Source: Nonlabens ponticola
Lineage (GTDB): Bacteria > Bacteroidota > Bacteroidia > Flavobacteriales > Flavobacteriaceae
NCBI RefSeq assembly: GCF_003966335.1
Contig: NZ_CP034549.1
Span: 2,430,001-2,462,000 of the forward strand
Reading direction: 5' to 3'
DNA: 32,000 nucleotides
This document shows, piece by piece, positions 3,450 through 30,653 of the stretch; the stretch's first letter is position 1, and each line of letters starts with the position of its first letter. Position numbers and translations under genes: made by a program. The notes below the pieces were generated by a model. That model was not told where the DNA came from, searched no databases, and saw nothing but the letters and a program-made list of their open reading frames with translations.

Positions 3450-3465
3450 AGCTTTCGCGAAAGCT
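3450..3465. repeat. Iterated palindrome copy 1 (AGCTTTCGCGAAAGCT, 16-bp perfect)
   Basis: Exact core GCTTTCGCGAAAGC at 3451-3464. Intergenic, 15 nt downstream of the ppk2 stop. Confidence 0.95.
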
Positions 3466-3480
3466 AGACTGGAAACGCAC

Positions 3481-4356
3481 TTAATCCCGTGATAAAACCT
3501 CCTTGTATGTTTCAATCTTATCGAGCTCTTCCTTATCCAACGTCGGGAAGTTCACATCTTCATAATCATCTAATTTCTCATTGAGTATTGATGAAACGAT
3601 CAGTCTTGCTATTGGTTTTTCATCTGCGGGCACGATGTACCATGGACTATGCTCATGGCTCGTGTTTGCAATGGCCGCCTCATAACATCGTTGATAGTCA
3701 TCCCATAAAGCTCGCTCTTTCAAATCTCCACTTGAAAATTTCCAATTTTTCTCGGGTAGATTAAGACGCCTCAATAATCTGTTTTTCTGCTCCTCTTTAC
3801 TTAAATGAAGGAAGAACTTAAATACAATGGTTCCATTTTCAACCAACTGTTTCTCAAAATTATTGATTTGCTCAAAGCGCATGTTCCAAAAATCCTGGTT
3901 TACATCACTTACCTCATGGATGTCTGGTAGGTTCTCATTTAGCAAATATTCTGGATGAACTCTTGTTACTAGCACATTCTCATAATGAGTACGATTGAAG
4001 ATGCCAAAATTACCCTTAGCCGGTAAGGTGATATAATGACGCCACAGGTAATTATGTGAAAGCTCTAGATCAGTAGGTGTCTTAAAGCTATGCTGCTCGA
4101 CGCCACGCACATTGAAATCTTTAAAAACTTCTCTAATCAGACTATCCTTTCCTGAGGTATCCATACCCTGAAAACAAACCAAGACGGCTCGCCTGTCGTT
4201 GGCGAACAATCGCTCTTGAAATTCCGCTAGTTTCCTGCGTTGTTTCTTAAGCTCTTTTTTAGCTGTCTTTTTATCGAGATCAAATGACGGTTTTGTGCTT
4301 CTTTCAGATATTTTGAAGTCTGCGTCTGCGTAGTAGTCGTTGGCGTTTATCTTCAT
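3481..4356 (-). CDS. ppk2: Polyphosphate kinase 2 family protein (single-domain PPK2, polyphosphate:nucleotide phosphotransferase)
   Basis: 291 aa with the Walker A-like GMDTSGKD motif, the HSFKTPT..E..HNYLWR block and a length typical of one-domain PPK2. Its ATG overlaps the upstream stop as ATGA at 4353-4356. Confidence 0.88.
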   Translation of the reverse strand: MKINANDYYADADFKISERSTKPSFDLDKKTAKKELKKQRRKLAEFQERLFANDRRAVLVCFQGMDTSGKDSLIREVFKDFNVRGVEQHSFKTPTDLELSHNYLWRHYITLPAKGNFGIFNRTHYENVLVTRVHPEYLLNENLPDIHEVSDVNQDFWNMRFEQINNFEKQLVENGTIVFKFFLHLSKEEQKNRLLRRLNLPEKNWKFSSGDLKERALWDDYQRCYEAAIANTSHEHSPWYIVPADEKPIARLIVSSILNEKLDDYEDVNFPTLDKEELDKIETYKEVLSRD

Positions 4357-5516
4357 TTGCTGGCAAATAACTTTACATCTTTCTCGCTCACATCTTTACC
4401 GCCTAAAATAATTAATCGCTCGACAACATTGCGCAGCTCTCTTATATTTCCCGTCCAATCATATTCTTGCAATAGTTTGATTGCTTTCTTGTCAAAAGTT
4501 TTTACCGGCGTACCCTGTTCCTTTGCAATTTTTTCAGCAAAATAATCAACCAGTAATGGTATGTCCTCGCGTCGATCATTTAGCGATGGCACATTAATAA
4601 GTATAACGGCTAGTCTGTGATAAAGATCTTCTCTAAATTTCTTATCCTCAATCTCTTGCTTTAGATCCTTGTTTGTAGCTGCGAGGATGCGCACATCTAC
4701 CTTGATATCTTTGTCGCTGCCTACTCGTTGAATTTTATTTTCTTGTAGGGCGCGTAATACTTTAGCCTGAGCTTTGGCACTCATATCGCCTATCTCATCA
4801 AGAAATATAGTACCGCCGTTAGCTGCCTCAAATTTACCGGCGCGATCCTTATTGGCTCCAGTAAAGCTACCTTTGACATGACCAAATAGTTCACTCTCTA
4901 TCAATTCACTAGGAATAGCGGCACAATTGACTTCTATAAAGGGACCTTTGGAACGCTCACTTTTCTCGTGTAACCAGTGTGCAACAAGCTCTTTACCGGT
5001 ACCGTTTTGTCCTGTAATAAGAACGCGAGCATCGGTTTGAGCTACCTTGTCTATTATGTTTTTTATGATGACAATGAGCTCGCTCTCGCCTATCATCTCA
5101 TAATTCTTACTCACTTTTTTCTTGAGCCTTTTATTCTCGACCACTAGCTCTTTTCTATCCAATGCGTTGCGCACGGTGTTGAGCAATCTGTTGAGATCTG
5201 GTGGTTTTGAGATATAATCAAAAGCACCCAGTCTCATGGTATTAACAGCGGTATCGAGATCGCCATGTCCAGAGATCATTACAACTGGCACCTCTGGCTT
5301 GATCTTTTTTATAGCCGTTAGAACCTCAACACCATCCATTTTTGGCATCTTTATATCACATAGTATCAGGTCATAATCGTTATCCTTGATAAGTTCAATA
5401 CCAGCTAGACCGTCTTCTGCTTCAATGACATTGTAGCTTTTGCTTTCTTCAGATAATATTTTTGAGAGTACACGTCTTATTGCAGACTCGTCCTCGATAA
5501 TAAGTATTTGTGCCAT
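4353..5516 (-). CDS. Sigma-54-dependent response regulator (receiver + AAA+ activator) with no C-terminal DNA-binding domain
   Basis: N-terminal receiver domain (ILIIEDE..., DLILCDIKMPKMDG). AAA+ sigma-54 interaction domain with Walker A GQNGTGKE, the GAFTGA-loop variant GSFTGA, Walker B FLDEIG, and IRELRN. The protein ends 25 aa after IRELRN at residue 387, so there is no Fis-type HTH. Confidence 0.9.
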   Translation of the reverse strand: MAQILIIEDESAIRRVLSKILSEESKSYNVIEAEDGLAGIELIKDNDYDLILCDIKMPKMDGVEVLTAIKKIKPEVPVVMISGHGDLDTAVNTMRLGAFDYISKPPDLNRLLNTVRNALDRKELVVENKRLKKKVSKNYEMIGESELIVIIKNIIDKVAQTDARVLITGQNGTGKELVAHWLHEKSERSKGPFIEVNCAAIPSELIESELFGHVKGSFTGANKDRAGKFEAANGGTIFLDEIGDMSAKAQAKVLRALQENKIQRVGSDKDIKVDVRILAATNKDLKQEIEDKKFREDLYHRLAVILINVPSLNDRREDIPLLVDYFAEKIAKEQGTPVKTFDKKAIKLLQEYDWTGNIRELRNVVERLIILGGKDVSEKDVKLFASK

Positions 5517-6409
5517 TATATTTTAAATTTTAATCCTACTCTAGAGTAGAATGTATTAGAATCATTGATGTTCTTCACATCATCTCCATCCTCATTGCGC
5601 AACCTTATATCATTAATAGCCGTGTAGCCTACATAGGCATAGAGTGACAAATGTCTCGTTAGGTTGTACTGGTATCCAGGCCCAACAACTACCGTCGTTA
5701 AGCTTGCATTATCGGCAATTTGATCGTCGTCTGTGACAACATTATTCTGAATGTTTGCATAAAACCCGTCAAGCCTTGCATACAACTGTACGCTATTTTT
5801 ATCATTGAATCTGTATTTCAGATTCATCTTGGGTGCGCCTACGCTATAACTCCAGTCTGGAGCAAATTCCCTGTAGTAGTTTATATAGGGTAAAGGAAAC
5901 GGTCTACCAACTCGCGTGGAATACTGCACACCTACTACAAGTCTCCACGGTTTGGTCTTGAAATTATCTGTTGCGTCCTTTATAAAATAAACAGAACCCG
6001 AAAAGAAAATATCGTCCTTCTCTACACTGCCAGAGTCAAAGTTTGACGCAAATAAAAATCCTGCCCTACTACCAAACCGCCAGTCCTTTTTCATAGGAAA
6101 TGTATAGCCTATGGCGCCCTCATAACTCTCGTACCTATCTGTGCCAAATTCTCTAAAGCGATCGTCATCTCTAATCAAAAAATGCACGTTGCGATATTCA
6201 AAAAACGGGACGATGTACGTGCCTTCCTTAATCTTGAGTGGAATATTGATAAAGGTTCTAAATCTCCTGAAACTGTTGTCTGAGTTTCTTTGTGGGAAGT
6301 ACGTGTACTCTACTCTAGCGAGGTCGGTTGCTTGGGAGTTAGCTTTCGCGAAAGCTAAAAACACTACAATCATCACCAACATATAACTGGTTGTCTTACT
6401 CTTCTTCAT
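5516..6409 (-). CDS. Outer-membrane beta-barrel protein, function unknown
   Basis: Signal peptide MKKSKTTSYMLVMIVVFLAFA/KANSQ is followed by alternating aromatic/hydrophilic beta-strand patterns through to the C-terminus. I place the start at ATG 6409, not the track's 6502, which would put 31 non-signal residues in front and overlap the upstream gene. Confidence 0.65.
   Translation of the reverse strand: MKKSKTTSYMLVMIVVFLAFAKANSQATDLARVEYTYFPQRNSDNSFRRFRTFINIPLKIKEGTYIVPFFEYRNVHFLIRDDDRFREFGTDRYESYEGAIGYTFPMKKDWRFGSRAGFLFASNFDSGSVEKDDIFFSGSVYFIKDATDNFKTKPWRLVVGVQYSTRVGRPFPLPYINYYREFAPDWSYSVGAPKMNLKYRFNDKNSVQLYARLDGFYANIQNNVVTDDDQIADNASLTTVVVGPGYQYNLTRHLSLYAYVGYTAINDIRLRNEDGDDVKNINDSNTFYSRVGLKFKI
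6339..6358. repeat. Iterated palindrome copy 2 (TTAGCTTTCGCGAAAGCTAA, 20-bp perfect)
   Basis: Exact core at 6342-6355, inside the beta-barrel CDS. It encodes FLAFAKAN of the signal peptide. Confidence 0.95.
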
Positions 6410-7316
6410 GCAGTGCAGCGTTGTTAGGGTTTTTATTAAAATCAATGGGATTACTCTGGTAAAAATGTACGTCTCGTTGTGGAAACGGTATAGTGATACC
6501 ATTATCTCTGAATGCCTGGTCTATCGCAAATCGCAGATTGCTCTTGATACGAGGATCTGTAAAACTGTCACGCACATAGAAGTATACACCAAAGTCCAGA
6601 CTGCTATCACCAAAGTTATTGAACATGACAAATGGTTCCGGGCTTTTTAAAATTCCTTTTTGTTCCCGGGCGCACTCTACCAGCAAGCGCTCGACTAGTT
6701 TTGTGTCGCTACCATAGGCAACGCCTACAAGCACATGCTCGCGGGTTTTGGCGTGATTTTGAGTGAAGTTATAGATGACCTCTGTAAGAAAGAGATGATT
6801 GGGAATCACAAGAATTTTATCATCTCTTGTTATCGCACGGGTACTGCGCAATTTTATCTCAAATACGCGGCCTACCTTGCCATCCATTTCTATCACGTCA
6901 TTCACCAGAAGCGACTTATCAATCAGGATGGCCACACCTGCGATAATATCTTTGAAAAAGTCCTGCAGTGCAAAACCTATTCCTACAAATACGGCAGCAC
7001 TGGCCGTCAGTATAGCAGTCAAATCCACACCAGACGTGCTTAACACAATGAGGATTACCGTTAAATAAACCAGATAATTAAAGAACTTGAAGATGCTCTC
7101 AAACTTGAGCTTGTCTGCACTATCCATGTTCCTGGTAACAAACTTGCGTATAGCCCTCAATACAAAGGTTGCCGCTATTACTGCGAGAATGGAGACGATA
7201 AGCATCCAGGTATCAAAGTGAAAATCACTCTTATCATCCTGAGGAATGATCTGGAATGTGAGAAAATCCTTAACAGATTGCCAGGTCTCTTTTATGGATT
7301 GCCAAGTTGTATCCAT
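6396..7316 (-). CDS. Mechanosensitive ion channel family protein (MscS-like)
   Basis: 306 aa with three N-terminal TM helices, then the MscS beta-domain signature (VNDVIEMDGKVGRVFEIKLRSTRAITRDDKILVIPN) and a C-terminal alpha/beta domain. Confidence 0.85.
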   Translation of the reverse strand: MDTTWQSIKETWQSVKDFLTFQIIPQDDKSDFHFDTWMLIVSILAVIAATFVLRAIRKFVTRNMDSADKLKFESIFKFFNYLVYLTVILIVLSTSGVDLTAILTASAAVFVGIGFALQDFFKDIIAGVAILIDKSLLVNDVIEMDGKVGRVFEIKLRSTRAITRDDKILVIPNHLFLTEVIYNFTQNHAKTREHVLVGVAYGSDTKLVERLLVECAREQKGILKSPEPFVMFNNFGDSSLDFGVYFYVRDSFTDPRIKSNLRFAIDQAFRDNGITIPFPQRDVHFYQSNPIDFNKNPNNAALHEEE

Positions 7317-8608
7317 TAATATTTAAGCCATTTATACAAATCCTTCCAATTGGTTTTCTTGCCGTACATGAGTATACCTATGCGATAGATTTTGGCAGCG
7401 ATGTAAGCTACTAAAAATATAGATGCATAAAGTATAGTCACGCTTAGTGCTATGTGCCACCACTCTACTTCACCAAATGGTATGCGCATTAACATCACAA
7501 TAGGCGACGTTAGTGGTATGTACGAGAATACAACGGCTACAGTACCGTTGGGATTATCCATTACGCTGAAAAACCCAACATAAACTGCTAGCATTAGAGG
7601 CAAAATAACAGGCAACATGAATTGCTGTGTGTCTGTTTCATTATCCACTGCTGCTCCTATGGCCGTATAGATAGCAGCATACAAGAAGTAACCGCCGATA
7701 AAGTAAATGAGAAAACAACTAATCATCGTTCCTAGTGGCAATTGCATAATGTCATTGATGATAGCTTGCATTTGATCCACATTTTGTGTCTGGGCTACCA
7801 CTTGTGCATTTGCTGGTGTTTGAAATGCCTCAACGCCTAAAATTGCAGAACCAACGGTCACCAGAGCAATTCCCAAAACAATCCATATCGCAAATTGAGT
7901 TATTCCAGCTAGTGAAGTACCCATAATCTTACCCAGCATCAAATAGATAGGTTTTACAGAACTTACAATGATCTCAATAATACGATTGGTTTTTTCCTCA
8001 ATTACTGATCGCATCACCATATTACCATAAATAATAATAAACATCATGAGTAAATAACCAGCGGCGCCACCCATGGCTATTTTAATCCAGCTAGATGCCT
8101 TGCTATTAGTCACTCCTGAATAGGTCTGTAATTCCACCTGAGCTTGCACTCGATTCTCTTCTAAAGTCTGCGGTTGTATACCAACGTTGATGAGATTGCG
8201 TTGCGTCGCTTGTTGCGAGACTTTTTCTTCAATAGCATTTATAAAACCTACTGATGGTGAGTCATCACTATATATTTCTACTTTGACTTCTTGATCAGTA
8301 TTCTGAGAGATGTTTATCAAGGCATAGTATTCCTTGCTCCTACTTATTTCAATCGCGTTCTCAAGATCTGCATTTGCGATCGACAGATAATTGTATTCAT
8401 CATTAGATTCAAATTGCTGACTATAATTTCCAGTAGTGTCGCGCAGCGCTACTTGTCGTACCTCATCGCTGTTAATACTAGTCAACCATCCTATCAATAA
8501 AATCACCCCAATAAATATGAGCGGACTTAAAAAAGTCATGACAATAAAAGTGCGATTGCGCACACGATTGATGTACTCACGTTTAATAATCAACCAAAGT
8601 TTATCCAT
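7316..8608 (-). CDS. ABC-2 type transporter permease (NatB-like, large N-terminal extracytoplasmic loop)
   Basis: One N-terminal TM helix, a soluble loop of about 150 aa, then 5 TM helices, directly downstream of an ABC ATPase. I use ATG 8608 (MDKLWL...). The track's GTG at 8614 is also possible. Confidence 0.8.
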   Translation of the reverse strand: MDKLWLIIKREYINRVRNRTFIVMTFLSPLIFIGVILLIGWLTSINSDEVRQVALRDTTGNYSQQFESNDEYNYLSIANADLENAIEISRSKEYYALINISQNTDQEVKVEIYSDDSPSVGFINAIEEKVSQQATQRNLINVGIQPQTLEENRVQAQVELQTYSGVTNSKASSWIKIAMGGAAGYLLMMFIIIYGNMVMRSVIEEKTNRIIEIIVSSVKPIYLMLGKIMGTSLAGITQFAIWIVLGIALVTVGSAILGVEAFQTPANAQVVAQTQNVDQMQAIINDIMQLPLGTMISCFLIYFIGGYFLYAAIYTAIGAAVDNETDTQQFMLPVILPLMLAVYVGFFSVMDNPNGTVAVVFSYIPLTSPIVMLMRIPFGEVEWWHIALSVTILYASIFLVAYIAAKIYRIGILMYGKKTNWKDLYKWLKY

Positions 8609-9530: not shown

Positions 9531-9626
9531 AAAAGAATTAAAACAGGCTAAAATACTAAGACCACGGCCATCTACTAGTTTATTTTCATATAATTTAATA
9601 ATTATCACGCCTTTACAAAAGGTCAT

Positions 9627-9661
9627 AAAAAAACCCACCTCTCAATTACTTGAGAGGTGGG
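9627..9661 (-). terminator. Rho-independent terminator of grpE-dnaJ
   Basis: 12-bp perfect stem CCCACCTCTCAA / TTGAGAGGTGGG (9634-9645 and 9650-9661) with a 4-nt loop. On the minus strand it is followed by a run of 7 U (A-run 9627-9633 on the plus strand). Confidence 0.78.
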
Positions 9662-9752
9662 AAAAATTGCTATGAAAAAGAAAAATAACAATTGGTTGGT
9701 TAACCAATGTTGATCAAAGGTAATACATCTTTTTCATTTAATTAGTATTTAT

Positions 9753-10886: not shown

Positions 10887-10887
10887 A

Positions 10888-11486: not shown

Positions 11487-11500
11487 GCTTTCGCGAAAGC
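11487..11500. repeat. Iterated palindrome copy 3 (core 14-mer; TTA[C]...TAA arms span 11483-11503)
   Basis: Exact core. Intergenic, 54 nt upstream of the grpE ATG on its transcribed side. Confidence 0.95.
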
Positions 11501-11534
11501 TAACTCTACCAAAATCTTACCTGCACGCAAAGGG

Positions 11535-13724: not shown

Positions 13725-13757
13725 AAAAGCTCACAGCCATCTGGCTGTGAGCTTTTT
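13725..13757 (-). terminator. Rho-independent terminator after the DUF2141 gene
   Basis: 14-bp perfect stem AAAAGCTCACAGCC (13725-13738) / GGCTGTGAGCTTTT (13743-13756) with a 4-nt loop and A/T runs on both sides. Confidence 0.68.
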
Positions 13758-13775
13758 ACTTGATGAAATCATAAT

Positions 13776-14204
13776 TCAAATCACGATCTTGATGGTTGCA
13801 TCATCCGTAACGTCAAATTTAGCGTCTGCCCATGATGGTGGTCCCATGCTCATTGGGTTGTTACTCATTCCATAATCTTCCTTAGGCATGCCATTGTTCT
13901 CAAAGTCCATTTGCATGTTCTCATTTTTATCATGCAATACCATGACCGCATATTCACCAGCTGGTACATTTTTAAATGTTACCGTTGCAACACCATCTAC
14001 TATGGCAACAGAATCTGATTTGAAAGGTGCGGCACGCATGAAGTCGTTTTTGGTATTAAGCGAGAACATCATCTTGCCATCATTACTGCGAGCGTTAGGA
14101 ACGGTAACAGTGAGTGTATAACCATCGTTGACGGTTTCTTCTTGGCCTTGAGCAGTAAAAACGGTTGTAGCTAGAAATAAAATACTAAGGATAAAAGTTT
14201 TCAT
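13776..14204 (-). CDS. DUF2141 domain-containing secreted protein
   Basis: Signal peptide MKTFILSILFLATTVFTAQG followed by the DUF2141 pattern (...VLHDKNENMQMDFENNGMPKEDYGMSNN...). I use ATG 14204 rather than the track's 14255. Confidence 0.8.
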   Translation of the reverse strand: MKTFILSILFLATTVFTAQGQEETVNDGYTLTVTVPNARSNDGKMMFSLNTKNDFMRAAPFKSDSVAIVDGVATVTFKNVPAGEYAVMVLHDKNENMQMDFENNGMPKEDYGMSNNPMSMGPPSWADAKFDVTDDATIKIVI

Positions 14205-15193: not shown

Positions 15194-15520
15194 TTAAAGA
15201 TTCTTCTTGATCTTGAGCAGCTCTGCTTTTACAAATTCCAGCTTGGCAATGATCTCAAAATTGCTGATCTCTGTTTTATGAGATTTCATGTAATCACGAG
15301 CGCCTTCTAACGTGTAGCCACATTCCTGTACTAAATGGAATATGGTTTGTAGATTTTTAATATCCTGCGGTGTAAACTTACGGTTACCGCGAGCATTTTT
15401 TTTAGGCTGGATGATGTCAAATTCCTTTTCATAGAATCTGATTTTTGAAGCTGCCACGCCGAAGGCCTTGGTCACTTCACCCATGGAATAATACAGCTTT
15501 TCTGGTAGGTCAACGTGCAT
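15194..15520 (-). CDS. MerR family transcriptional regulator
   Basis: 108 aa with an N-terminal MerR-type HTH (YSMGEVTKAFGVAASKIRFYEKEF) and a short coiled-coil C-terminus. Its ATG shares 1 nt with the upstream stop, as TAATG. Confidence 0.82.
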   Translation of the reverse strand: MHVDLPEKLYYSMGEVTKAFGVAASKIRFYEKEFDIIQPKKNARGNRKFTPQDIKNLQTIFHLVQECGYTLEGARDYMKSHKTEISNFEIIAKLEFVKAELLKIKKNL

Positions 15521-16500
15521 TAGTCCAGTGATATATTTTCCTGCTGTGATTTCTTGAGCAGCTCGTTAAACTCCTCTGGAGTCAAGTTACCGTAATAGAA
15601 ATTGATAGGATTGATACGCTCGCCATCCAGGAATACTTCATAGTGCAAGTGTGGTGCCTGTGATCTTCCTGTAGACCCTACATAACCTATGATATCGCCG
15701 CGTTTTACACGCTGGCCGCGTCTCACATTATATGGCTTGTTAGATCTCAAATGTGCGTATAAAGTAGTGTAGCCAAAACCGTGATCGATACGTATATGAT
15801 TCCCATAACCAGAGCTATTAGCATCTGCTCGATCTACAACGCCATCGCCAGTAGCAAAAACAGGTGTACCGCGCGGCGCGGTAAAATCCATACCATAATG
15901 AAACTTTCTGGTCTTGTTAAAGGGATCTGTACGATAACCATAGCCACTTGCCATGCGCGTCAAATCCTGGTTGCGCACTGGTTGAATGGCTGGAATACTG
16001 GCTAGTAAATTTTCTTTATCCTTGGCAAGTACCGCAATCTCGTCTAGCGATTTACTCTGTATAGCGACACGCTTCTTGAGCTTATCGATAGACTCTTTTA
16101 CAGCTATAATTCGCTCACTGGCGTCATATCCTTCATAATCCTCATAGCGATTCACACCACCAAAACCTGCCTGTCGCTGCTCATCTGGAATAGGCGTCGC
16201 GTCAAAATAAATACGGTAGATACTGTTATCGCGATCCTCAATATCCTCAATTACAGTCGCTAGCTGCTCTACTTCCATCTGCATGGACTTGAGCTGCTGC
16301 TCCACAAATTGTTTCTCACGCTTTGCACGTCTCAATTCTGGCGAGTCATATACCTGACCTGCATATAGATAGAGTAAAAAACCTGTGAGACAAGAGAAGA
16401 AAATAAAAAGCGTCACTCCACCAAAAATCTTACGCTTCTTGCGCTCTACCTTCTGGTAGGACAAGGTTTCTGGATCGTAGTAATACTTAATCTTTGACAT
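15520..16500 (-). CDS. M23 family metallopeptidase, membrane-anchored
   Basis: One TM helix, a coiled-coil region, then the M23 motifs HYGMDF, GNHIRIDHG and PHLHYEV. The start is set at ATG 16500 (MSKIKYYYDPETLSYQ). The track's extension to 16617 crosses the palindrome and promoter region. Confidence 0.85.
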   Translation of the reverse strand: MSKIKYYYDPETLSYQKVERKKRKIFGGVTLFIFFSCLTGFLLYLYAGQVYDSPELRRAKREKQFVEQQLKSMQMEVEQLATVIEDIEDRDNSIYRIYFDATPIPDEQRQAGFGGVNRYEDYEGYDASERIIAVKESIDKLKKRVAIQSKSLDEIAVLAKDKENLLASIPAIQPVRNQDLTRMASGYGYRTDPFNKTRKFHYGMDFTAPRGTPVFATGDGVVDRADANSSGYGNHIRIDHGFGYTTLYAHLRSNKPYNVRRGQRVKRGDIIGYVGSTGRSQAPHLHYEVFLDGERINPINFYYGNLTPEEFNELLKKSQQENISLD

Positions 16501-16522
16501 ATGTTTTAATATGCTATTTTTG
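16493..16522 (+). promoter_or_regulatory. Candidate alaS promoter (TTTG-N18-TATTTTTG)
   Basis: TTTG at 16493-16496 and TATTTTTG at 16515-16522 on the plus strand, about 135 nt upstream of the alaS ATG. A mirror -7 box, TACTTTTG, lies on the minus strand at 16622-16615 for the peptidase gene. Motif match only. Confidence 0.3.
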
Positions 16523-16571
16523 CCGTGAATAGCACGCTGCTTGTGGTTTGCAGTGTGTTTGATGAGTGTTA

Positions 16572-16585
16572 GCTTTCGCGAAAGC
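16572..16585. repeat. Iterated palindrome copy 4 (core 14-mer; GTTA...[G]TAAC arms span 16568-16590)
   Basis: Exact core, in the divergent M23-peptidase/alaS intergenic region. Confidence 0.95.
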
Positions 16586-16656
16586 GTAACAATCATCACA
16601 GCAATAAACGCAAACAAAAGTAATAAATTACCTCAAACTGCATCTACAGCAAGCCG

Positions 16657-20251: not shown

Positions 20252-21163
20252 ATGAAATTCACCACCAGCTTTGAGATTGAAAAGCATCCACTTCCTATTG
20301 ATCATGACAGTCATGTGGTTTTGCTAGGCAGTTGCTTCACTGATCATATGTATCGCAAATTGCGCTACTATGGCTTTGATGCTGTTTCAAACCCTTTTGG
20401 GATATTGTTCAATCCTTTCAGTATATCTCACCTGGTAAGCAAATCAATTCAGGATGATTTCAAGCTAGATGATGTAGAATCCACTTTTTCATATCTCGCA
20501 CATTCTGATATTGCCGGTGATGATCCTGATGCTGTTTTAACTGAATTGCAAACGGCTGGAAAAAAGCTGAAAGAAAGTCTTAATAAGGCAACTCATGTGA
20601 TTATTACCTTGGGCACTTCTTGGATTTATGAGCTCAAAGAAAGCAGCCAAATCGTTGCTTCCTGCCATCAACAGCCACAAAAACTGTTTGATAAACGATT
20701 GCTCAAGATAGATGAGATCAACCAAAGTTTGAATAAACTAATAGATCTAATCCAGGGCTTGACACAGGCTTCCATCCTATTTACCGTATCGCCAGTACGT
20801 CACACTCGAGATGGCATGGTTGAGAATCAACGCAGCAAGGCGCGTCTTCATGAGGCAATACAGCAACAAGTAGATGCAAAAAGAGCATATTATTTTCCTA
20901 GTTATGAGCTTTTTATGGATGACCTACGCGACTATCGTTTTTATGATCGTGATATGATCCATCCCAATGAAATAGGTGTAGATTATGTGTGGTTACGCTT
21001 TCGCGAAAGCGTAATCAACCAAAACACCGCAACAGCAATTAAAGCACTTGAGAAACTACGCAAATTAGAACAACACAGACCGAAAGACGCCGCAACTCAC
21101 GCTAGACAGGTTGATGAATTTAAAGTTAAAGTGCTGAATGAATTCCCTAACTTGACGCTATGA
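20252..21163 (+). CDS. GSCFA domain-containing protein
   Basis: Contains the family-naming GSCF motif (VVLLGSCFTDHM) and the later ...HPNE... block. 303 aa. Confidence 0.82.
   Translation: MKFTTSFEIEKHPLPIDHDSHVVLLGSCFTDHMYRKLRYYGFDAVSNPFGILFNPFSISHLVSKSIQDDFKLDDVESTFSYLAHSDIAGDDPDAVLTELQTAGKKLKESLNKATHVIITLGTSWIYELKESSQIVASCHQQPQKLFDKRLLKIDEINQSLNKLIDLIQGLTQASILFTVSPVRHTRDGMVENQRSKARLHEAIQQQVDAKRAYYFPSYELFMDDLRDYRFYDRDMIHPNEIGVDYVWLRFRESVINQNTATAIKALEKLRKLEQHRPKDAATHARQVDEFKVKVLNEFPNLTL
20993..21014. repeat. Iterated palindrome copy 5 (TTACGCTTTCGCGAAAGCGTAA, 22-bp perfect)
   Basis: Exact core at 20997-21010, inside the GSCFA CDS. It encodes WLRFRESVI. Confidence 0.95.
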
Positions 21164-22819: not shown

Positions 22820-22849
22820 AATTCTATGACTGCTTTGAGCAGTGTTAGT

Positions 22850-23398: not shown

Positions 23399-23498
23399 TC
23401 AGGCTTTAAGACTAGCGTGTTTTGCAATAGTTTAATCACAATCAAAAAATTATGATTGGATCGATTTTTGCTTAGTTTTATCTTCAAATTTAATAAGA

Positions 23499-24221: not shown

Positions 24222-24242
24222 ATCTTGGTACTTACTTAAAAC

Positions 24243-24271
24243 AAAAACAGCGCCCATTGGGCGCTGTTTTT
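24243..24271 (+). terminator. Rho-independent terminator (AAAAACAGCGCCC-ATT-GGGCGCTGTTTTT)
   Basis: 13-bp perfect stem with a 3-nt loop and a T-run, 22 nt after the BI-1 stop. Confidence 0.8.
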
Positions 24272-24371
24272 GTTTCTAGCAATAACTCTGAAAAGTCATA
24301 TAAAATAAGGTGTTCTTGATTTTTGTTATATTAAGAGCAATAACAGTAAACAATCTAATTAACTCTTTTAT

Positions 24372-25511
24372 ATGCCTATCAAACAGAAACTTTATATTCT
24401 TTCCATAGTTTTACTTGTATTGTCTTGTAAGACGGAAAATCAATCAGCCATTGAGCCAGAGCCTGAAAATATGAGTCTATTGGTAGGTGAGGTGAAAGAT
24501 TTTCCAGATAGTACCTGGATTTATCTAAGCTATGAAGGAAATGATGCAGACTCAACAATGGTCACAAAAGGTAAATTCCAATTCGAGCAAACAGTCGAAT
24601 ACCCAAAAAGTTACACGATTTACACAAAAAACCCGCCTAATTGGAGTAGTATTTGGTTAGAAGAAGGCACTACGACATTTAGCGCCAGGAATGGAGACTT
24701 CAGAAATGCAATAGCATCAGGAACTGCCACTCAAGAAGAAGACAATTCATTTGTTGAGTCGTTAGGAGGCTATTGGAATAAACAAGATAGTCTGAGATTG
24801 ATTTATATAGATACGTTGCAACCAGCTATAGAACAAGAAAAAGCGTCAGACTACGCAGCAAAATTAAGAGCCGATAAATTCAAAAAAGAGCAAGCCTACA
24901 TTGCCGAAAATCCTAATTCTTATTTAAGTGCTCACCTATTGGATTTTTATACAACTACTTATGGTTACGATACCGTAAACCTTCTTTTCTCAAAATTTCC
25001 GGACAGTTTAAAATCTTCTGCCTACGGTATGAGAATTAATAAGTTTCTTGATACAAATGAAAGTCCCGACATAGGTGATGACTACATAGATTTTACCCTA
25101 AAAAATGACACTGGCGAGATGGTAAAATTTTCCGAAGCTAGAGGTAAACTAACGCTTATTGATTTTTGGGCCTCGTGGTGTGGCCCATGTATTGAAGAAT
25201 ATCCAACATTAAAAAAAGTATATGAACAAAATAAAGCTAACGGCTTTGAAATAGTAGGTGTTTCACAAGACTTAAATGAAGAGCCATGGCTGGAAAGCAT
25301 TAAAAAAAATAGACTCAATTGGACAAACCTTATTAATGATAAAAATAGCCCAAGTGACCCATACCTGATTTATGGAATCAATGGTATTCCAGACAATTTT
25401 CTTGTTGATGAAAATGGTAAAATCATCGCACGCAACCTACGTGGTGAAGATCTTGAAAAGGCTGTAAAAGATTACTTCAAATATCGCCGACCTGATAACG
25501 ATGTCTTCTAA
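24372..25511 (+). CDS. TlpA-family thiol-disulfide oxidoreductase lipoprotein (N-terminal DUF4369-like domain + thioredoxin fold)
   Basis: Lipoprotein signal (LLVLSC) and C-terminal thioredoxin-like domain with WASWCGPC. 379 aa. Confidence 0.88.
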   Translation: MPIKQKLYILSIVLLVLSCKTENQSAIEPEPENMSLLVGEVKDFPDSTWIYLSYEGNDADSTMVTKGKFQFEQTVEYPKSYTIYTKNPPNWSSIWLEEGTTTFSARNGDFRNAIASGTATQEEDNSFVESLGGYWNKQDSLRLIYIDTLQPAIEQEKASDYAAKLRADKFKKEQAYIAENPNSYLSAHLLDFYTTTYGYDTVNLLFSKFPDSLKSSAYGMRINKFLDTNESPDIGDDYIDFTLKNDTGEMVKFSEARGKLTLIDFWASWCGPCIEEYPTLKKVYEQNKANGFEIVGVSQDLNEEPWLESIKKNRLNWTNLINDKNSPSDPYLIYGINGIPDNFLVDENGKIIARNLRGEDLEKAVKDYFKYRRPDNDVF

Positions 25512-25515
25512 TAAT

Positions 25516-25544
25516 AAAAACAGCGCCCCATGAGCGCTGTTTTT
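25516..25544. terminator. Bidirectional terminator between convergent genes (AAAAACAGCGC-CCCATGA-GCGCTGTTTTT)
   Basis: 11-bp stem flanked by an A-run and a T-run. Its stem sequence is almost identical to the terminator at 24243-24271. Confidence 0.75.
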
Positions 25545-25547
25545 GTT

Positions 25548-26234
25548 TTAATTAGTAATCGCTTTCCACTTTAAACCTTCTAGAATCGTTGTCAGTCCGG
25601 TAATCTTCTCTTTCTTACCTGCTTTCATATCGCTGTATATGGCATAGGGTGTTGCGCCAATTAACGTCGCTACTCCAGTAGCGCTTTCAACAAAGTTTTT
25701 ATCTTTTGCATCGGGCAAATCTGTTTGAAAAGAACCAAATGATATTGCTTCTAACTCGTTAACCAACGACACATATTTTAGTACATTGGATCCAGTGATT
25801 GCATCATCATCAGTAAAATACCTATTGATTTTACGGTAAAATCTTAAGGCATTTTTGTTGATCATATCCGCATTTAATTGATTGATGAAAATATCAACCA
25901 CTCTTTTCTCATTGATGTACTCTTTGATATAATCTGACCTAAAAATTCTCAACATAGAAATTCTTGCTTCAGATAGTGCTAAATCTGTCTCGATCTTCTT
26001 TTTCTCCTCATCACTCGCGGATTTGAGCGACTCCCGATAGGATTTGATCTTTTGATTCTCTTCATTTATAAAATTTTTGAACTGACCTTCATAAGAGTCC
26101 AGTTGCAACTCAGCATCAGATTTTATAAATGTTAAATAACTAACTAATCCTAAAGGTTTCACATCGTCTTTGGAAAGCTGGGAATAGCCAGATACATATA
26201 TTAGAAGTAAGCAAATGGTATAGAGTGTTTTCAT
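25548..26234 (-). CDS. Hypothetical secreted protein
   Basis: Signal peptide MKTLYTICLLLIYVSGYSQ (ATG 26234; the track's 26243 start is TTG) followed by a helical, K/E-rich protein. No family recognised. Confidence 0.55.
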   Translation of the reverse strand: MKTLYTICLLLIYVSGYSQLSKDDVKPLGLVSYLTFIKSDAELQLDSYEGQFKNFINEENQKIKSYRESLKSASDEEKKKIETDLALSEARISMLRIFRSDYIKEYINEKRVVDIFINQLNADMINKNALRFYRKINRYFTDDDAITGSNVLKYVSLVNELEAISFGSFQTDLPDAKDKNFVESATGVATLIGATPYAIYSDMKAGKKEKITGLTTILEGLKWKAITN

Positions 26235-26273
26235 GATAAACAATTTGATTCTAAACTAGAAACATTGTAAAGC

Positions 26274-26301
26274 AAAAAAAATACCCTTTAAAGGGTATTT
26301 T
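26274..26301 (-). terminator. Rho-independent terminator after ettA
   Basis: 24-bp perfect palindrome AAAATACCCTTT/AAAGGGTATTTT (26278-26301), preceded on the plus strand by an A-run that becomes a U-tail on the minus strand. 30 nt downstream of the ettA stop. Confidence 0.7.
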
Positions 26302-26330
26302 CTGGTACTAATGGAATGGGATCGAATATT

Positions 26331-28022
26331 CTAATCCCTAATCAACTTCTTGTAACGTATTCTTTTAGGCGTTACATCACCCAAGCGTTTCTTCTTGTTC
26401 TCTTCATACTCGGTAAAGCTACCTTGGAACGAATAGACTTGTGAATCACCTTCAAAGGCAATGATATGTGTACAAACTCTATCAAGGAACCATCTATCGT
26501 GCGAGATAATCACGGCACAACCTGCAAAGTTTTCCAGACCTTCTTCTAGCGCTCTCAAGGTATTCACGTCAAGATCATTGGTAGGCTCATCCAGAAGCAA
26601 CACGTTTCCTTCCTCTTTCAACGTCATCGCTAGGTGCAAACGGTTGCGCTCACCACCAGATAGCGTGGCTACCTTTTTATTCTGCTCTGATCCCGAAAAG
26701 TTGAATCGGCTCAAATAAGCTCGCGAATTCACCATCTTGCCGCCCATCATGACCGTGTCCTGACCATCGGCAAAGTTCTCCCAGATAGATTTTTCTGGAT
26801 CGATGTTACTGTGCGTTTGATCTACATAAGCCAACTTTACCGTATCACCTACTGTAAAACTTCCCTTATCAGGTTCCACCTCATCCATTATCATCTTGAA
26901 AATGGTGGTCTTACCAGCACCGTTGGGTCCTATAATTCCCACGATTCCATTTTGTGGTAGTGTAAAATTCAAGTCTTCATACAGCAGCTTATCGCCAAAG
27001 GCTTTACTCACTCCTGTCGCCTCGATCACGTTAGTTCCTAGTCGTGGACCATTAGGAATGTAGATCTCTAGCTTTTCTTCCTTGGCTTTTTGATCTTCAT
27101 TCAACAACTTGTCATAGTTATTTAAACGCGCTTTTTGCTTGGTCTGGCGACCTTTGGCACCTTGACGTACCCAATCCAACTCTCGCTGTAACGTTTTGCG
27201 ACGTTTAGATTCTGATTTCTCTTCCTTGGCAAGACGGTCGCTTTTCTGTTCCAACCAGCTAGAATAATTCCCTTTCCATGGGATTCCTTCACCACGATCC
27301 AATTCTAGGATCCAGCCAGCAACATTATCTAGGAAATAACGGTCGTGCGTTACCGCGATTACCGTTCCTTTATATTGCGCTAGATGTTGTTCCAGCCATA
27401 AAACCGATTCGGCATCAAGGTGGTTGGTAGGCTCATCCAGCAGTAAAATCTCTGGTTGTTGTAGCAATAATCTACACAATGCTACACGACGCTTCTCACC
27501 ACCAGAAAGGTTTTCAATACTTGCATCGCCTGGTGGCGTGCGCAAGGCGTCCATTGCGATTTCTAGTTTAGTATCCAGTTCCCAGGCGTTGAGTGCATCG
27601 ATCTTGTCCTGCAATTCTGCCTGACGGTTCATGAGCTTCTCCATCTTGTCGGCATCGCTGTAAACCTCTTCTTTACCAAAATCGTCATTGATCTGATTGT
27701 ATTCATCTAGAATTGCAACGGTTTCTGCCACGCCTTCACGCACGATTTCCATCACGGTTTTACTCGCATCCAGTTCTGGTTCTTGTTCCAGATAACCTAC
27801 TTTGTAACCAGGCAGGAAATGAATATCACCCTGGTAATTTTTCTCCTTGCCAGCAATAATCTTGAGCAAGGTCGACTTACCCGAGCCATTGAGACCCAGA
27901 ATACCAATCTTGGCGCCATAGAAGAAACTCAAATGTATGTTCTTCAATACCTGTTTTCCCGTGCTTTGGTAGGTCTTTGACAGACCAGACATGGAAAAAA
28001 TTACTTGTTTATCGTCACTCAT
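26331..28022 (-). CDS. ettA: Energy-dependent translational throttle protein EttA (ABC-F ATPase)
   Basis: 563 aa with two ABC cassettes (GLNGSGKST / LSGGEKRRVAL / LLLDEPTNHLD and GPNGAGKTT / LSGGERNRLHL / LLLDEPTNDLD). The N-terminus (VIFSMSGLSKTY) and the inter-domain linker are typical of EttA. Confidence 0.95.
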   Translation of the reverse strand: MSDDKQVIFSMSGLSKTYQSTGKQVLKNIHLSFFYGAKIGILGLNGSGKSTLLKIIAGKEKNYQGDIHFLPGYKVGYLEQEPELDASKTVMEIVREGVAETVAILDEYNQINDDFGKEEVYSDADKMEKLMNRQAELQDKIDALNAWELDTKLEIAMDALRTPPGDASIENLSGGEKRRVALCRLLLQQPEILLLDEPTNHLDAESVLWLEQHLAQYKGTVIAVTHDRYFLDNVAGWILELDRGEGIPWKGNYSSWLEQKSDRLAKEEKSESKRRKTLQRELDWVRQGAKGRQTKQKARLNNYDKLLNEDQKAKEEKLEIYIPNGPRLGTNVIEATGVSKAFGDKLLYEDLNFTLPQNGIVGIIGPNGAGKTTIFKMIMDEVEPDKGSFTVGDTVKLAYVDQTHSNIDPEKSIWENFADGQDTVMMGGKMVNSRAYLSRFNFSGSEQNKKVATLSGGERNRLHLAMTLKEEGNVLLLDEPTNDLDVNTLRALEEGLENFAGCAVIISHDRWFLDRVCTHIIAFEGDSQVYSFQGSFTEYEENKKKRLGDVTPKRIRYKKLIRD

Positions 28023-28431
28023 GTTTAGATGTTTTGTCTTGTAATAATGTATTCAATTGTTTGAGAGATTGATCTGTGTAACGCTTTCGCGAAAGCTTCA
28101 TCACATCAAGCCCTTGTACTTTTAATAAAAGTCCTTGTTCTTTCAATTCAAATTCCTGCACGTCGCTGAAGGTGAAACCTACGGACTTTTGCCCAAGTAA
28201 TTTAAATGTTGCACTCTTGTCGCTGTACGAAATGGCGTTGGCACTGGTAAAGCTGTCCAAACTCAAACTGGTAAAGGCTGCAACGGCAAGACCAGCGGCA
28301 ATGTAAGCCCATTGTTCCGGTGCGTCCAGTATCCAGCAAGCAACCGCAATCACGATCAAAACAACGCCAGTCAAGGCAAAACCACGATACCTAGCAGATG
28401 TCAAATCAATAAATTTGATACTGCGCTGCAC
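28015..28431 (-). CDS. Hypothetical membrane protein (2 TM + C-terminal PH-like soluble domain?)
   Basis: 138 codons with no ATG; a GTG at 28431 lies immediately after the TAG of the upstream ORF and in the same frame. Two TM helices are followed by a beta-rich domain of about 75 aa. Its stop overlaps the ettA ATG by 8 nt. Contains palindrome copy 6. Confidence 0.5.
   Translation of the reverse strand: MQRSIKFIDLTSARYRGFALTGVVLIVIAVACWILDAPEQWAYIAAGLAVAAFTSLSLDSFTSANAISYSDKSATFKLLGQKSVGFTFSDVQEFELKEQGLLLKVQGLDVMKLSRKRYTDQSLKQLNTLLQDKTSKHE
28083..28096. repeat. Iterated palindrome copy 6 (core 14-mer)
   Basis: Exact core inside the 138-codon ORF. It encodes KLSRKR. Confidence 0.95.
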
Positions 28432-28614
28432 CTACACTCTACCTTTAAGGGCGTTGAAAACCCATGCAATGGCAAAAAATCCGATGCCCACCGCGGCAAA
28501 ACCATAACCCGCTACGTCTCTATATCTAAAGGCGCCTAGTGCGATCAAGCCTAGTCCTATAATAATCATGATGAGCACTGCCCATCCTAACACTCCGTTT
28601 TTATTCATCGCCAT
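28432..28614 (-). CDS. Small membrane protein (60 aa, 2 TM)
   Basis: ATG start and two hydrophobic helices (VLGWAVLIMIIIGLGLIALGAF, GFAAVGIGFFAIAWVF). Ends in a TAG that is in frame with the next ORF. Confidence 0.45.
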   Translation of the reverse strand: MAMNKNGVLGWAVLIMIIIGLGLIALGAFRYRDVAGYGFAAVGIGFFAIAWVFNALKGRV

Positions 28615-28654
28615 AATCTATCCATTTAATCTATCAAATATAAGGTGGTCAGGT

Positions 28655-29803
28655 CTAGTCTGTTTTGACTTTTTTTGACCCGCGATATAGTTCATACTTC
28701 ACTAGTCGAGCCTCAAGTTTACCGTTGTACAATTTAATACGTTTGCTGGTTTTTAGGCCTACATGTTTCAAGGCTTCTAGATTACCTGTAATGAGCCATG
28801 CGGTACTACCGGCATATCTGCTCTTGAGCGTGTCGCCTATTTCTTTATAAAAAGCCTCCATATCGATCTCCAGTCGCTCATCATACGGTGGATTAAACAT
28901 GAGAAATGCCTGTGCACTTTGTGAATCTCTAAAGAAATCACCTTTCTCTAGACTAATAAAATCAGTAAGATTGGCATTCTTTACATTTTCCCTTGCTTTT
29001 TCAATAGTGTAACCATCGGCATCACGTGCGATGATCTTGCCATCAAACTCACGCATCTTCTTCAAGCAACTTTCCTGGATATTCTCAAAGAGCTGGTTGT
29101 CATAGTCTGGCCATTTTTCAAAGCCAAATTCTGGCCTATTGATATTGGGTGCGATGTTCGCGCCTATCATGGCTGCCTCAATCGCTATGGTACCACTACC
29201 GCACATAGGATCAATAAAAGTCGATCGCTGATCCCAATCACTCAGCAAAATAATTCCAGCCGCTAGCACCTCGTTGATTGGCGCGACGTTGGTTTTTTCA
29301 CGGTAGCCACGTTTATATAATGGCTCACCGCTGGTGTCCAGCGATACATCGACTGTCTGATCATTGATGTGAACAGATATGCGCAAATCTGGATGCTTGG
29401 TATCCACATCTGGTCGCCTACCCGATTGATTGCGTATCTGATCCACAATCGCATCCTTGGTTTTCAAGGCAACATACTGACTGTGATTGAAATATTGAGA
29501 AGAAACCGTGGCGTTGACAGCCAGCGTATCGTGCGGCGTCAAGTACTCGCTCCAGTCCATCTGGTAAATGCCGTCGTACAAATCCACCTCATTGCGAGCG
29601 CGGAAACTGTGTATGGGTTTCAAAATCCTGATCGCCGTGCGCAGCATCATGTTTGCCTTGTACATAAAGCCTTGATCACCAGAAAAGCTTACCATGCGCA
29701 CGCCAGGTTTGATGTCCATCGCGCCCAGGTTTCTTAGCTCTTTTTCCAGTACTTCTTCAAGGCCAAAAAGCGTTTTGGCAATCATCTTAAAATTTTGCGA
29801 CAT
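28655..29803 (-). CDS. THUMP domain-containing class I SAM-dependent RNA methyltransferase (RlmL/RlmK-like)
   Basis: N-terminus MIAKTLFGLEEVLEKELRNLGA... (ferredoxin-like + THUMP), SAM motif I DPMCGSGTIAIEAA and catalytic NPPYDERL. The start is set at ATG 29803, not the track's 29896. Confidence 0.85.
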   Translation of the reverse strand: MSQNFKMIAKTLFGLEEVLEKELRNLGAMDIKPGVRMVSFSGDQGFMYKANMMLRTAIRILKPIHSFRARNEVDLYDGIYQMDWSEYLTPHDTLAVNATVSSQYFNHSQYVALKTKDAIVDQIRNQSGRRPDVDTKHPDLRISVHINDQTVDVSLDTSGEPLYKRGYREKTNVAPINEVLAAGIILLSDWDQRSTFIDPMCGSGTIAIEAAMIGANIAPNINRPEFGFEKWPDYDNQLFENIQESCLKKMREFDGKIIARDADGYTIEKARENVKNANLTDFISLEKGDFFRDSQSAQAFLMFNPPYDERLEIDMEAFYKEIGDTLKSRYAGSTAWLITGNLEALKHVGLKTSKRIKLYNGKLEARLVKYELYRGSKKVKTD

Positions 29804-29846
29804 GCAGGCAGATTTGAGCGGCAAAATTAAGGTATTTTTGTGGCCT

Positions 29847-30653
29847 ATGGATGATGCGCAGCACTCTAAAACTTGGTATGCCAGCTGGTTTAACACGCCG
29901 TACTATCACATGCTGTACAAGGATCGTGATTATCAAGAAGCCGCTGATTTCATGCAGCAACTCACTGATAAATTAGAGTTGACTCAAGGTGCCAAAATCC
30001 TGGATCTTGCCTGCGGTCGTGGTCGCCACAGCATGTATTTGAACAAGCTGGGTTATGATGTGACTGGTGTAGATTTGAGTGAGAGTAGTATAGCTTTCGC
30101 GAAAGCGAGATTAAAAAACATCAAAGAAGGACACTTAGAACTGGACGAGCCTGATCAATCCTCGCTGCAATTGGATCGCATCAAGTTTGCCGTACACAAT
30201 ATGACGGTGCCTTATACTGATACCTTTAATGCGGTGTTCAATCTCTTTACCAGTTTTGGATATTTTGACGATCCACAGGATAATCAAAGAACTGTAAGCA
30301 GCATCAAGAAGATGTTGAAGCTTGATGGATATGGAGTGATTGATTTTTTCAATTCGCATCACGTGATAGAGCATCTTGTGCCTTATAATGAGAAAGAAGT
30401 GCGCGGCATCATGTTCAAGCAATCACGTAGGTTTGAGGATGGTTTTATCTTCAAGGACATAGAGTTTGAAGACGACGGCGAGCGCTATAAGTTTACCGAG
30501 CGCGTGAGTGCATTGACTCAGGAGGATTTCTTGAATTACCTCGACACTGCTAGTCTCGAATTGGTACACACTTTTGGCGATTATCAATTAGCTGACTTTG
30601 ATCAAGAAACATCACCACGATTGATACTGGTTTTTAAAATCGCTGTGTCATGA
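29847..30653 (+). CDS. Class I SAM-dependent methyltransferase
   Basis: Motif I ILDLACGRGRHS, followed by VTGVDLSE...A and FNLFTSFGYF. The start is set at ATG 29847 (MDDAQHSKTWY...) because earlier starts overlap the divergent gene. Contains palindrome copy 7. Confidence 0.8.
   Translation: MDDAQHSKTWYASWFNTPYYHMLYKDRDYQEAADFMQQLTDKLELTQGAKILDLACGRGRHSMYLNKLGYDVTGVDLSESSIAFAKARLKNIKEGHLELDEPDQSSLQLDRIKFAVHNMTVPYTDTFNAVFNLFTSFGYFDDPQDNQRTVSSIKKMLKLDGYGVIDFFNSHHVIEHLVPYNEKEVRGIMFKQSRRFEDGFIFKDIEFEDDGERYKFTERVSALTQEDFLNYLDTASLELVHTFGDYQLADFDQETSPRLILVFKIAVS
30093..30106. repeat. Iterated palindrome copy 7 (core 14-mer)
   Basis: Exact core inside the methyltransferase CDS. It encodes IAFAKAR. 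Confidence 0.95.

Follow-up and report, generated by a model that had tools for sequence, protein, structure and literature searches.

To our knowledge, short words that act as signals across a whole bacterial genome are rare, and the known examples are the uptake signal sequence (USS) of the Pasteurellaceae, the DNA uptake sequence (DUS) of the Neisseriaceae, the highly iterated palindrome HIP1 of the cyanobacteria and the Chi site of RecBCD and AddAB. Here, we describe a 14-bp perfect palindrome, GCTTTCGCGAAAGC (the word), which recurs in a 32-kb stretch of the genome of Nonlabens ponticola (contig NZ_CP034549.1, positions 2,430,001 to 2,462,000; this whole stretch is called the window). The USS of Haemophilus influenzae is found within open reading frames (ORFs) in 65% of cases, shows an excess in noncoding DNA, originates by point mutation and is significantly evenly spaced (PMC1939737). 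Two preprints (bioRxiv 10.64898/2026.06.24.733823 and 10.1101/2024.09.10.611283) describe HIP1 (GCGATCGC) as a palindrome that is conserved in evolution and distributed quasi-periodically; it is reported to enhance natural transformation and is proposed to be an uptake sequence. Riemerella, of the same family as Nonlabens, is naturally competent, with a preference for self-DNA in R. columbina, and no uptake word was found there at k ≤ 10 (PMC7965970). The original prediction, made from the window alone, likened the behaviour of the word to that of HIP1 or of the DUS and USS, and this likeness is supported by the enrichment of the word in one clade, its intergenic excess, its origin by substitution, its conservation at orthologous sites and its even spacing. 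The word is a DNA-level signal word of a group of marine Flavobacteriaceae that comprises Nonlabens, Dokdonia, Leeuwenhoekiella and probably Aquimarina. The data exclude chance, artefact, a protein motif, a miniature inverted-repeat transposable element (MITE) or repetitive extragenic palindrome (REP), a terminator, a structured RNA family and an ordinary regulon operator.

The window contains seven exact copies of the word (Table 1), as originally predicted, and a renewed search returned no further copies and no variants with one, two or three mismatches. The claim that this number is not due to chance also stands. Dinucleotide shuffles of the window gave a mean of 0.07 matches with two mismatches permitted, compared with the seven exact copies observed. 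The codon-preserving null that had been suggested along with the prediction, in which synonymous codons are redrawn from the usage of the window while the proteins are held fixed, gave 0.025 copies in ORFs compared with four observed, so that the word is far above this null as well. Wherever AFAKA (twice), LSRK (once) or FRES (once) occurs in the ORFs of the window, it is encoded by the word. No other k-mer is iterated in the window, making the word its sole iterated oligomer; no copy has an Rfam match, even at E ≤ 1, and a tRNA search returned nothing that accounts for the word. Outside the full word, the subwords TCGCGA and TTCGCGAA occur at their compositional expectation. In 710 kb of DNA from the clade there are 159 exact copies, 15 copies with one mismatch and 14 with two (a ratio of exact to one-mismatch copies of approximately 10:1), and none of these 29 near-variants carries a compensatory double change. 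An assembly or linker artefact, which had been named as a possible objection, is excluded because dozens of assemblies made independently contain the word, at positions that are orthologous and in the reading frame of conserved genes.

The distribution of the word was assessed by a scan of one genome per species, covering 185,579 species and 596 Gb. Among the matches listed, approximately 90 of the 120 genome blocks belong to the Flavobacteriaceae, mostly to Dokdonia and Nonlabens, and often hold two or three copies per 8 kb; the remaining blocks among these matches are single occurrences spread over unrelated phyla, as chance predicts in 596 Gb. The window had been attributed from its sequence to a Flavobacteriaceae-type genome, correctly so given that the host is N. 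ponticola: the alanyl-tRNA synthetase (AlaRS) of the window is 100% identical to a protein under this species name. Loci of 22.6 kb anchored on the AlaRS gene were picked blind to the word. Five copies were found at this locus in N. agnitus, three in N. ulvanivorans and seven in N. tegetincola, the AlaRS sequences of other Nonlabens being 75–80% identical to that of the window. The corresponding locus of Leeuwenhoekiella sp. A16 holds two copies together with near-variants, and that of Croceibacter atlanticus holds none. Across the four Nonlabens genomes sampled regardless of the word, the density is approximately one copy per 4.4 kb, which extrapolates to some 650–700 copies per genome.

At orthologous positions the word remains exact, even though the DNA around it has diverged. 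All six comparisons of window copies with aligned orthologous DNA in other Nonlabens (involving copies 3, 4, 5 and 6) retain the word, one of them with a synonymous change, and the flanking DNA at the compared sites is 62–84% identical. An exact copy is present at the orthologous position of copy 3 in N. agnitus (L121:3351) and of copy 6 in N. ulvanivorans (L122:21264), while copy 5 is exact in N. agnitus and carries a synonymous TTT to TTC change in N. ulvanivorans. Copy 4, in the spacer between an M23 peptidase gene and alaS, forms an invariant island in a region with a mean column identity of 62% across four Nonlabens species, and a Dokdonia contig also has the word at M23–alaS. At this position it is missing from Leeuwenhoekiella and Croceibacter. 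The Leeuwenhoekiella spacer (L124:9880–9925) has a split inverted repeat, CGTTTTC-N24-GAAAACG, where Nonlabens and Dokdonia carry the word; the repeat may be coincidental or may represent another element at that site.

The alignments of orthologous DNA contain no indels at the sites of the word, and the flanks of different copies are unrelated to each other. The columns of copy 5 are particularly informative: Nonlabens has LRFRES (TTA CGC TTT CGC GAA AGC) and Leeuwenhoekiella has NLFATS (AAT CTT TTT GCG ACG TCA) at equal length, which indicates that the word was built in place by several substitutions, some of them nonsynonymous.

The copies are over-dispersed, as if one were needed per segment of a few kilobases and a second one nearby added nothing. 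For the 18 intervals in four loci chosen regardless of the word, the mean is 4.3 kb and the coefficient of variation is 0.45, compared with 0.90 for random placement (P = 1.5e-4); the shortest interval is 1403 bp (P = 5.5e-4). The next copy never lies within 750 bp (no events in 118.7 kb at risk, compared with approximately 26 expected at the mean rate), and the hazard then rises with distance, from 0.06 per kb at 0.75–1.5 kb to 0.15–0.33 per kb at 2–6 kb and 0.64 per kb at 6–8 kb.

The anatomy of the element was examined in 142 instances from the clade. The base preceding the 14-mer (position −1) is C in 80% of these instances and is never G, and in 80% the base following it (position +14) is G, which makes the 16-mer CGCTTTCGCGAAAGCG the real core clade-wide. 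N. ponticola departs from this pattern, with C at −1 in three of its seven copies, G at +14 in three of seven and often A/T outer bases, although the restriction noticed originally, A or C on the left and T or G on the right in all seven copies, was confirmed on rechecking. At the orthologous M23–alaS and grpE–yceI sites the outer C or G is lost only in N. ponticola, which may have its own dialect of the word. Positions 3450–3465 around copy 1 form a 16-bp perfect palindrome, AGCTTTCGCGAAAGCT. The longer palindromes reported for copy 2 (20 bp, 6339–6358) and copy 5 (22 bp, 20993–21014) are indeed perfect, and the TTA(C)/(G)TAA arms of copies 3 and 4 are present with a 1-nt offset, as had been described. 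Across the clade, extension of the palindrome is limited to the inner 2–4 nt (TTAC/GTAA or TTCC/GGAA).

However, the original prediction that the copies share nothing beyond about 24 bp proved to be wrong, as the 142 instances reveal a weak extended consensus and a strand asymmetry that reach to approximately 30 nt. The consensus is symmetric and spans some 40 bp, with TTTTnnTGATTAC to the left of the core and GTAATCAnnAAAA to its right. From about −30 to −3 the frequency of C is approximately 8%, compared with a background of 19%, and the right arm is depleted of G as its mirror image; upstream of copy 7, for example, there is only one C in 39 nt. Intergenic copies and copies in any of the three coding frames show one and the same arm pattern. 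The 3-nt periodicity and the GT/AC-rich flanks could have come from coding for a hydrophobic stretch ahead of LSRK or AFAKA, but coding was rejected as the sole cause because the same position-specific pattern is seen intergenically; the flank asymmetry is not a codon artefact for the same reason. In these intergenic copies the shift in the arms is essentially from C to T (C −0.10, T +0.11, with G and A unchanged). Nor is the skew a statistical by-product of the word, since chance matches in unrelated phyla are unskewed (C 0.28, compared with a background of 0.295). The candidate causes of the arm asymmetry are a preference of the reader, insulation of the hairpin, loading of RecA onto a G/T-rich 3′ tail or deamination of cytosine on the strand that is exposed towards the site. 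The motifs GATGA/GATGAT on the left and TCATC on the right (as at 16558–16565 and 16592–16599) are enriched approximately threefold at a variable distance from the core; they were rejected as a defining part of the element, being present in only 11% of arms compared with 3.6% in the background. A copy-specific extended hairpin was likewise rejected, as the minimum free energy is −13.8 kcal/mol for native copies, compared with −13.7 kcal/mol with flanks swapped and −13.7 kcal/mol with random genomic flanks.

Placement with respect to genes was assigned for 144 instances, of which 96 (67%) lie in long ORFs and 48 (33%) in DNA that has only short ORFs and is presumably intergenic. In the long ORFs the word is read in all three frames, giving AFAKA in 53 copies, RFRES in 22 and LSRK in 21, and a favoured coding context is the end of a signal peptide (FLAFAKA followed by NSQ), which includes copy 2. 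The division of the window copies into three intergenic and four genic ones is as first described and persists after gene starts are corrected with the gene calls of orthologues; three of seven copies fall in the approximately 6% of the window that is intergenic. The copies do not resemble intrinsic terminators, whose composition would be the opposite of the A/C-rich 3′ arm and T/G-rich 5′ arm seen here, and most copies are in ORFs.

Two lytic phages of Nonlabens, P12024S and P12024L (35.7 kb each), contain no copies and no near-variants, compared with approximately eight expected at the density of the host; the two are close relatives and count as one observation. Nor do they have a TCGCGA (NruI) site in about 35 kb, although approximately four are predicted from composition; each encodes a DNA methyltransferase. 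This absence might reflect avoidance of restriction in the host. Some IMG/VR contigs among the matches listed (L178, L214 and L239/L242), which encode phage proteins (depolymerase, S49 protease and amidase), do hold two or three copies of the 16-mer at a host-like spacing of 3–6 kb, and these are probably resident prophages of the clade. The arm asymmetry is intermediate in these prophage-like contigs (C 12.8%, compared with approximately 8% in chromosomal copies), consistent with arms that adapt more slowly than the core.

Table 1. The seven copies of the word in the window and the genes in or near which they lie (gene strand in parentheses).
Copy	Position	Placement	Gene context	Frame and encoded peptide
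1	3451–3464	Intergenic	17 nt downstream of the stop of a 291-aa gene (3481–4356, −); ~105 nt upstream of the start of a 445-aa membrane-protein ORF (2009–3346, −)	
2	6342–6355	Genic	Signal-peptide coding region of gene 5516–6409 (−)	AFAKA; ...VMIVVFLAFAKA followed by NSQ
3	11487–11500	Intergenic	Divergent grpE/yceI region, 54 nt upstream of the grpE start	
4	16572–16585	Intergenic	Between M23 peptidase (true start near 16500, −) and alaS (16657, +)	
5	20997–21010	Genic	GSCFA-family gene (20252–21163, +)	RFRES
6	28083–28096	Genic	138-aa ORF (28015–28431, −), 68 nt before the stop	LSRK
7	30093–30106	Genic	Class-I-type methyltransferase-like ORF (~29850–30653, +)	AFAKA; ...SSIAFAKARLK

Several of the gene boundaries in Table 1 differ from those of the longest ORFs. 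Copy 4 is intergenic because the ORF around it is over-extended, the orthologues annotating the M23 peptidase at 326 aa, and 5′ over-extension likewise affects ORFs 5516–6502 and 15520–16617. The longest ORFs 28655–29896 (−) and 29694–30653 (+) overlap by approximately 200 nt on opposite strands, and the start of the methyltransferase-like ORF is almost certainly further downstream, near 29850. Upstream of alaS, TATTTTTG at 16515–16522 (+) fits TAnnTTTG, the −7 promoter consensus of the Bacteroidota, and it is conserved in four Nonlabens species, Dokdonia, Leeuwenhoekiella and Croceibacter. As copy 4 lies about 50 nt downstream of this box, it is probably within the alaS leader transcript. The window also contains a complete 16S rRNA gene at 70–1595 (−) (Rfam SSU_rRNA_bacteria, 1524 bits); there are no copies of the word in this gene or in the first 3.4 kb of the window. 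A sub-threshold Rfam match to Atu_C9 at 13726–13818 (−) (31 bits, compared with a gathering threshold of 40) consists only of a GC hairpin of terminator type and its T-run, located downstream of an epimerase gene, and is not the Rhizobiales small RNA.

The closest parallels to the word are the USS and DUS. Like them, it is a clade-specific exact word that is hugely over-represented, lies in coding DNA in approximately two thirds of cases with a noncoding excess and is made by point substitution. It occupies poorly constrained positions of proteins and can dictate the encoded peptide, as they do; the conservation at orthologous sites, the spacing that is more even than random, the weaker extended motif that flanks a strict core and the absence from a lytic phage of the host are shared too, although prophage-like contigs do carry the word. 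The differences are that the word is 14–16 bp in length rather than 9–12 bp and approximately four times sparser, that it is a perfect palindrome whereas they are asymmetric, that its near-variants seem to be much rarer than those of the USS and DUS, and that its phylum is the Bacteroidota. It also forms no close pairs, whereas DUS often form inverted-repeat terminators.

With HIP1 and the alternate HIPs of cyanobacteria the word has in common that it is a GC-rich perfect palindrome found genome-wide in genic and intergenic DNA, evolutionarily conserved and quasi-periodic. The function of HIP1 itself was long a puzzle and is now linked to natural transformation via uptake and a Chi-like effect. 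The two differ in sequence and phylum, the host here being a member of the Bacteroidota and not a cyanobacterium, and the word is twice as long, approximately 5–10 times less dense, has no known cognate methyltransferase and does not have subwords that are enriched on their own. We know of no description of strand-asymmetric arms for HIP1.

The density of the word is similar to that of Chi in Escherichia coli (approximately one per 4.5 kb), and Chi is another possible marker of self-DNA that is absent from phage lambda. Tracy et al. are said to have found in 1997 that Chi lies in G/T-rich sequence on the strand that becomes the 3′ tail, a setting like that of the word. Chi sites are 5–8 nt in length, asymmetric and biased in orientation with replication, whereas the word is a 16-bp palindrome that is the same from both sides; being its own reverse complement it has no orientation, and so does not qualify as a Chi site. 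Short-range exclusion is not a known property of Chi either.

A further resemblance is to the Noc-binding sites (NBS), parS, matS and SlmA sites, which are 12–16-bp palindromes bound by dimers (for the word, the dimer is presumed), often lie within genes and are conserved in position. These systems have tens of sites, compared with approximately 650, and theirs are regionally biased (towards the origin, the terminus or the non-terminus part of the chromosome). The half-sites and their spacing also differ, with TTTC-GC-GAAA in the word and TTTC-N4-GAAA in parS and NBS. Finally, REPs, with their bacterial interspersed mosaic elements (BIMEs) and REP-associated tyrosine transposases (RAYTs), provide hundreds of short palindromes per genome with an intergenic excess and hairpin potential, as the word does. 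However, REPs are strictly extragenic, imperfect and variable, clustered into BIMEs and gained by insertion, and none of these four properties holds for the word. Neither the word nor a comparable element in Nonlabens or Dokdonia, nor a HIP in flavobacteria, was found in the searchable literature or Rfam, in line with the original statement that no described element was recognized. As far as the searchable literature shows, no signal word of this type has been described for the Bacteroidota. Among such words this one stands out by its greater length combined with palindromy, by unusually strict exactness and spacing, and by an asymmetry of the arms that has not been reported before.

The explanation that we rank first, tentatively and at less than an even chance, is that the word would be a tag of self-DNA for uptake, recombination or both during natural transformation, the manner in which the USS and DUS act and in which HIP1 is now proposed to act. 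The perfect twofold symmetry with an 8-bp half-site points to a homodimeric sequence-specific reader, and the presence of about one copy per segment of a few kilobases, with no gain from a second nearby, points to a function of coverage. On this basis, a homodimeric protein would recognize the palindrome, and fragments bearing the word would be preferentially taken up or recombined. New copies would spread where there is no other copy within a recombination-sized distance, and mutated copies would be replaced, by a molecular drive in which selection may or may not take part. The C-free strand, rich in G and T, that runs 5′ to 3′ into the site from both sides might, speculatively, serve single-strand steps such as exposure of the hairpin or loading of RecA. 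A more specific form of this proposal is a little more doubtful: that the word may be the first sequence-specific signal for self-DNA recognition in the Bacteroidota, a 16-bp palindrome read by a homodimeric receptor, with arms that record a single-strand step.

A number of points weigh against a tag of self-DNA. Neither competence nor an uptake bias nor a receptor is known in Nonlabens or Dokdonia, and the window offers no hint of an uptake receptor. The classical USS and DUS are asymmetric and occur approximately once per kilobase, whereas this word is a perfect palindrome that occurs once per 4.4 kb, and for the asymmetry of its flanks no counterpart is established among uptake sequences. 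Exact copies outnumber one-mismatch copies to a degree that seems more extreme than in USS and DUS under pure drive, and this excess hints at direct selection on each site. The strong conservation of position in promoter-proximal intergenic DNA, judged from aligned sequences, fits an intracellular binding site equally well. As the prophage-like contigs carry the word, its absence from foreign DNA is not general.

An intracellular role of this kind is the explanation that we rank second, and we regard it as unlikely, if far from negligible. In this case the word would be the binding site of a chromosome-organizing or nucleoid-associated homodimer, with direct selection maintaining approximately one site per 4–5 kb in order to structure, compact or segregate the chromosome; Noc at NBS, SlmA at its binding sites (SBS), MatP at matS, ParB at parS, and gyrase or IHF at REP/BIME would be its functional analogues. 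Perfect palindromes of 14–16 bp are typical of dimeric helix–turn–helix or ParB-type sites, the extended symmetric arms suggest a footprint of some 40–70 bp, and the great excess of exact copies over near-variants favours selection per site; the exactness at position, coding DNA included, the quasi-regular spacing with short-range exclusion and the absence of the word from lytic phage agree with such a role. The extrapolated 650–700 sites per genome would nevertheless be 10–30 times as many as in known site-specific nucleoid systems, whose proteins usually tolerate degenerate sites, yet copies with one mismatch are some tenfold rarer here than exact ones. No candidate protein was identified, and such a role does not obviously account for arms that differ between the strands, without C on the 5′ side and without G on the 3′ side. 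Improbable, in our assessment, is a signal that acts as a hairpin in single-stranded RNA or DNA, namely a processing, stability or priming site with flanks tuned for folding, where CGCUUU[CGCG]AAAGCG would be identical whichever strand is transcribed or exposed. The folding predictions do lend it something: the 22-mer folds at −8.3 kcal/mol (z = −2.3), and the predicted probability of the core hairpin, 0.52 with native flanks, drops to 0.28 when the flanks are random, to 0.42 when the outer flanks are random (P = 0.01) and to 0.425 when the outer flanks are exchanged (P = 0.0014), while a DNA palindrome yields the same hairpin from both strands. There is, however, no covariation, with none of the 29 near-variants being compensatory, and the loop is as invariant as the stem, which argues for recognition of sequence rather than structure. 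The stem is not extended in a manner specific to each instance (see the free energies above) and there is no Rfam match; moreover, a stable hairpin would be of no obvious benefit in ORFs and signal peptides, and a role in RNA does not predict an even spacing in DNA.

We consider it slightly less probable still that the word is a functionless by-product of mutational drive, in which methylation- or repair-linked correction of mismatches runs towards the word, as in the HIP1 model of Elhai or in a Vsr-like very-short-patch system. The word is palindromic, CpG-rich (four CpGs in the 16-mer, together with the NruI site) and clade-specific, the intergenic shift in the arms resembles a change from C to T on the strand entering the site, and the Nonlabens phages are without any TCGCGA; iterated palindromes of the HIP type, moreover, have been linked to orphan methyltransferases (PMC4390886). 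Blind repair, though, predicts neither mutual avoidance of copies nor a hazard that rises with distance, a specificity of 14–16 bp is far beyond that of known methyltransferase or Vsr sites, and TCGCGA and TTCGCGAA show no enrichment outside the word, unlike the signatures of patch repair. The several copies that lie 50–100 nt upstream of start codons, conserved in the divergent regions grpE/yceI and M23/alaS, could be taken for operators at which a classical transcription factor controls a very large regulon, and a palindrome with a central CG is found in LacI-type operators. With two thirds of the copies at arbitrary positions inside ORFs, hundreds of sites, a regular spacing that is independent of gene structure and neighbouring genes that have no common functional theme, this is very improbable. 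A miniature mobile element of the MITE or REP/RAYT type, or a remnant of one, is effectively refuted despite the iterated palindrome and its intergenic enrichment. The DNA is of equal length with and without the word, with no indel, target-site duplication or terminal repeats, and no transposase is seen in the window or the orthologous loci; the in-frame copies are in three different frames, are never clustered and are old and conserved in position. The earlier judgement that REP, BIME and MITE elements fit poorly is borne out by these observations and by the two thirds of copies that lie in ORFs.

The USS, DUS, HIP1 and Chi each opened a view on two matters: how bacteria distinguish self-DNA from foreign DNA, and how protein coding can be overruled by molecular drive. 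With its approximately 10:1 exactness, strict short-range exclusion and asymmetric arms, the word would be a good system in which to separate drive from selection. The marine flavobacteria have a key part in degrading algal organic matter, and natural transformation is essentially unexplored in them. If the word is a tag of self-DNA, then abundant marine Flavobacteriaceae (Nonlabens, Dokdonia and Leeuwenhoekiella) would practise word-biased natural transformation, and, should the word enhance transformation, it would provide a practical tool for the genetics of genera that are hard to engineer.

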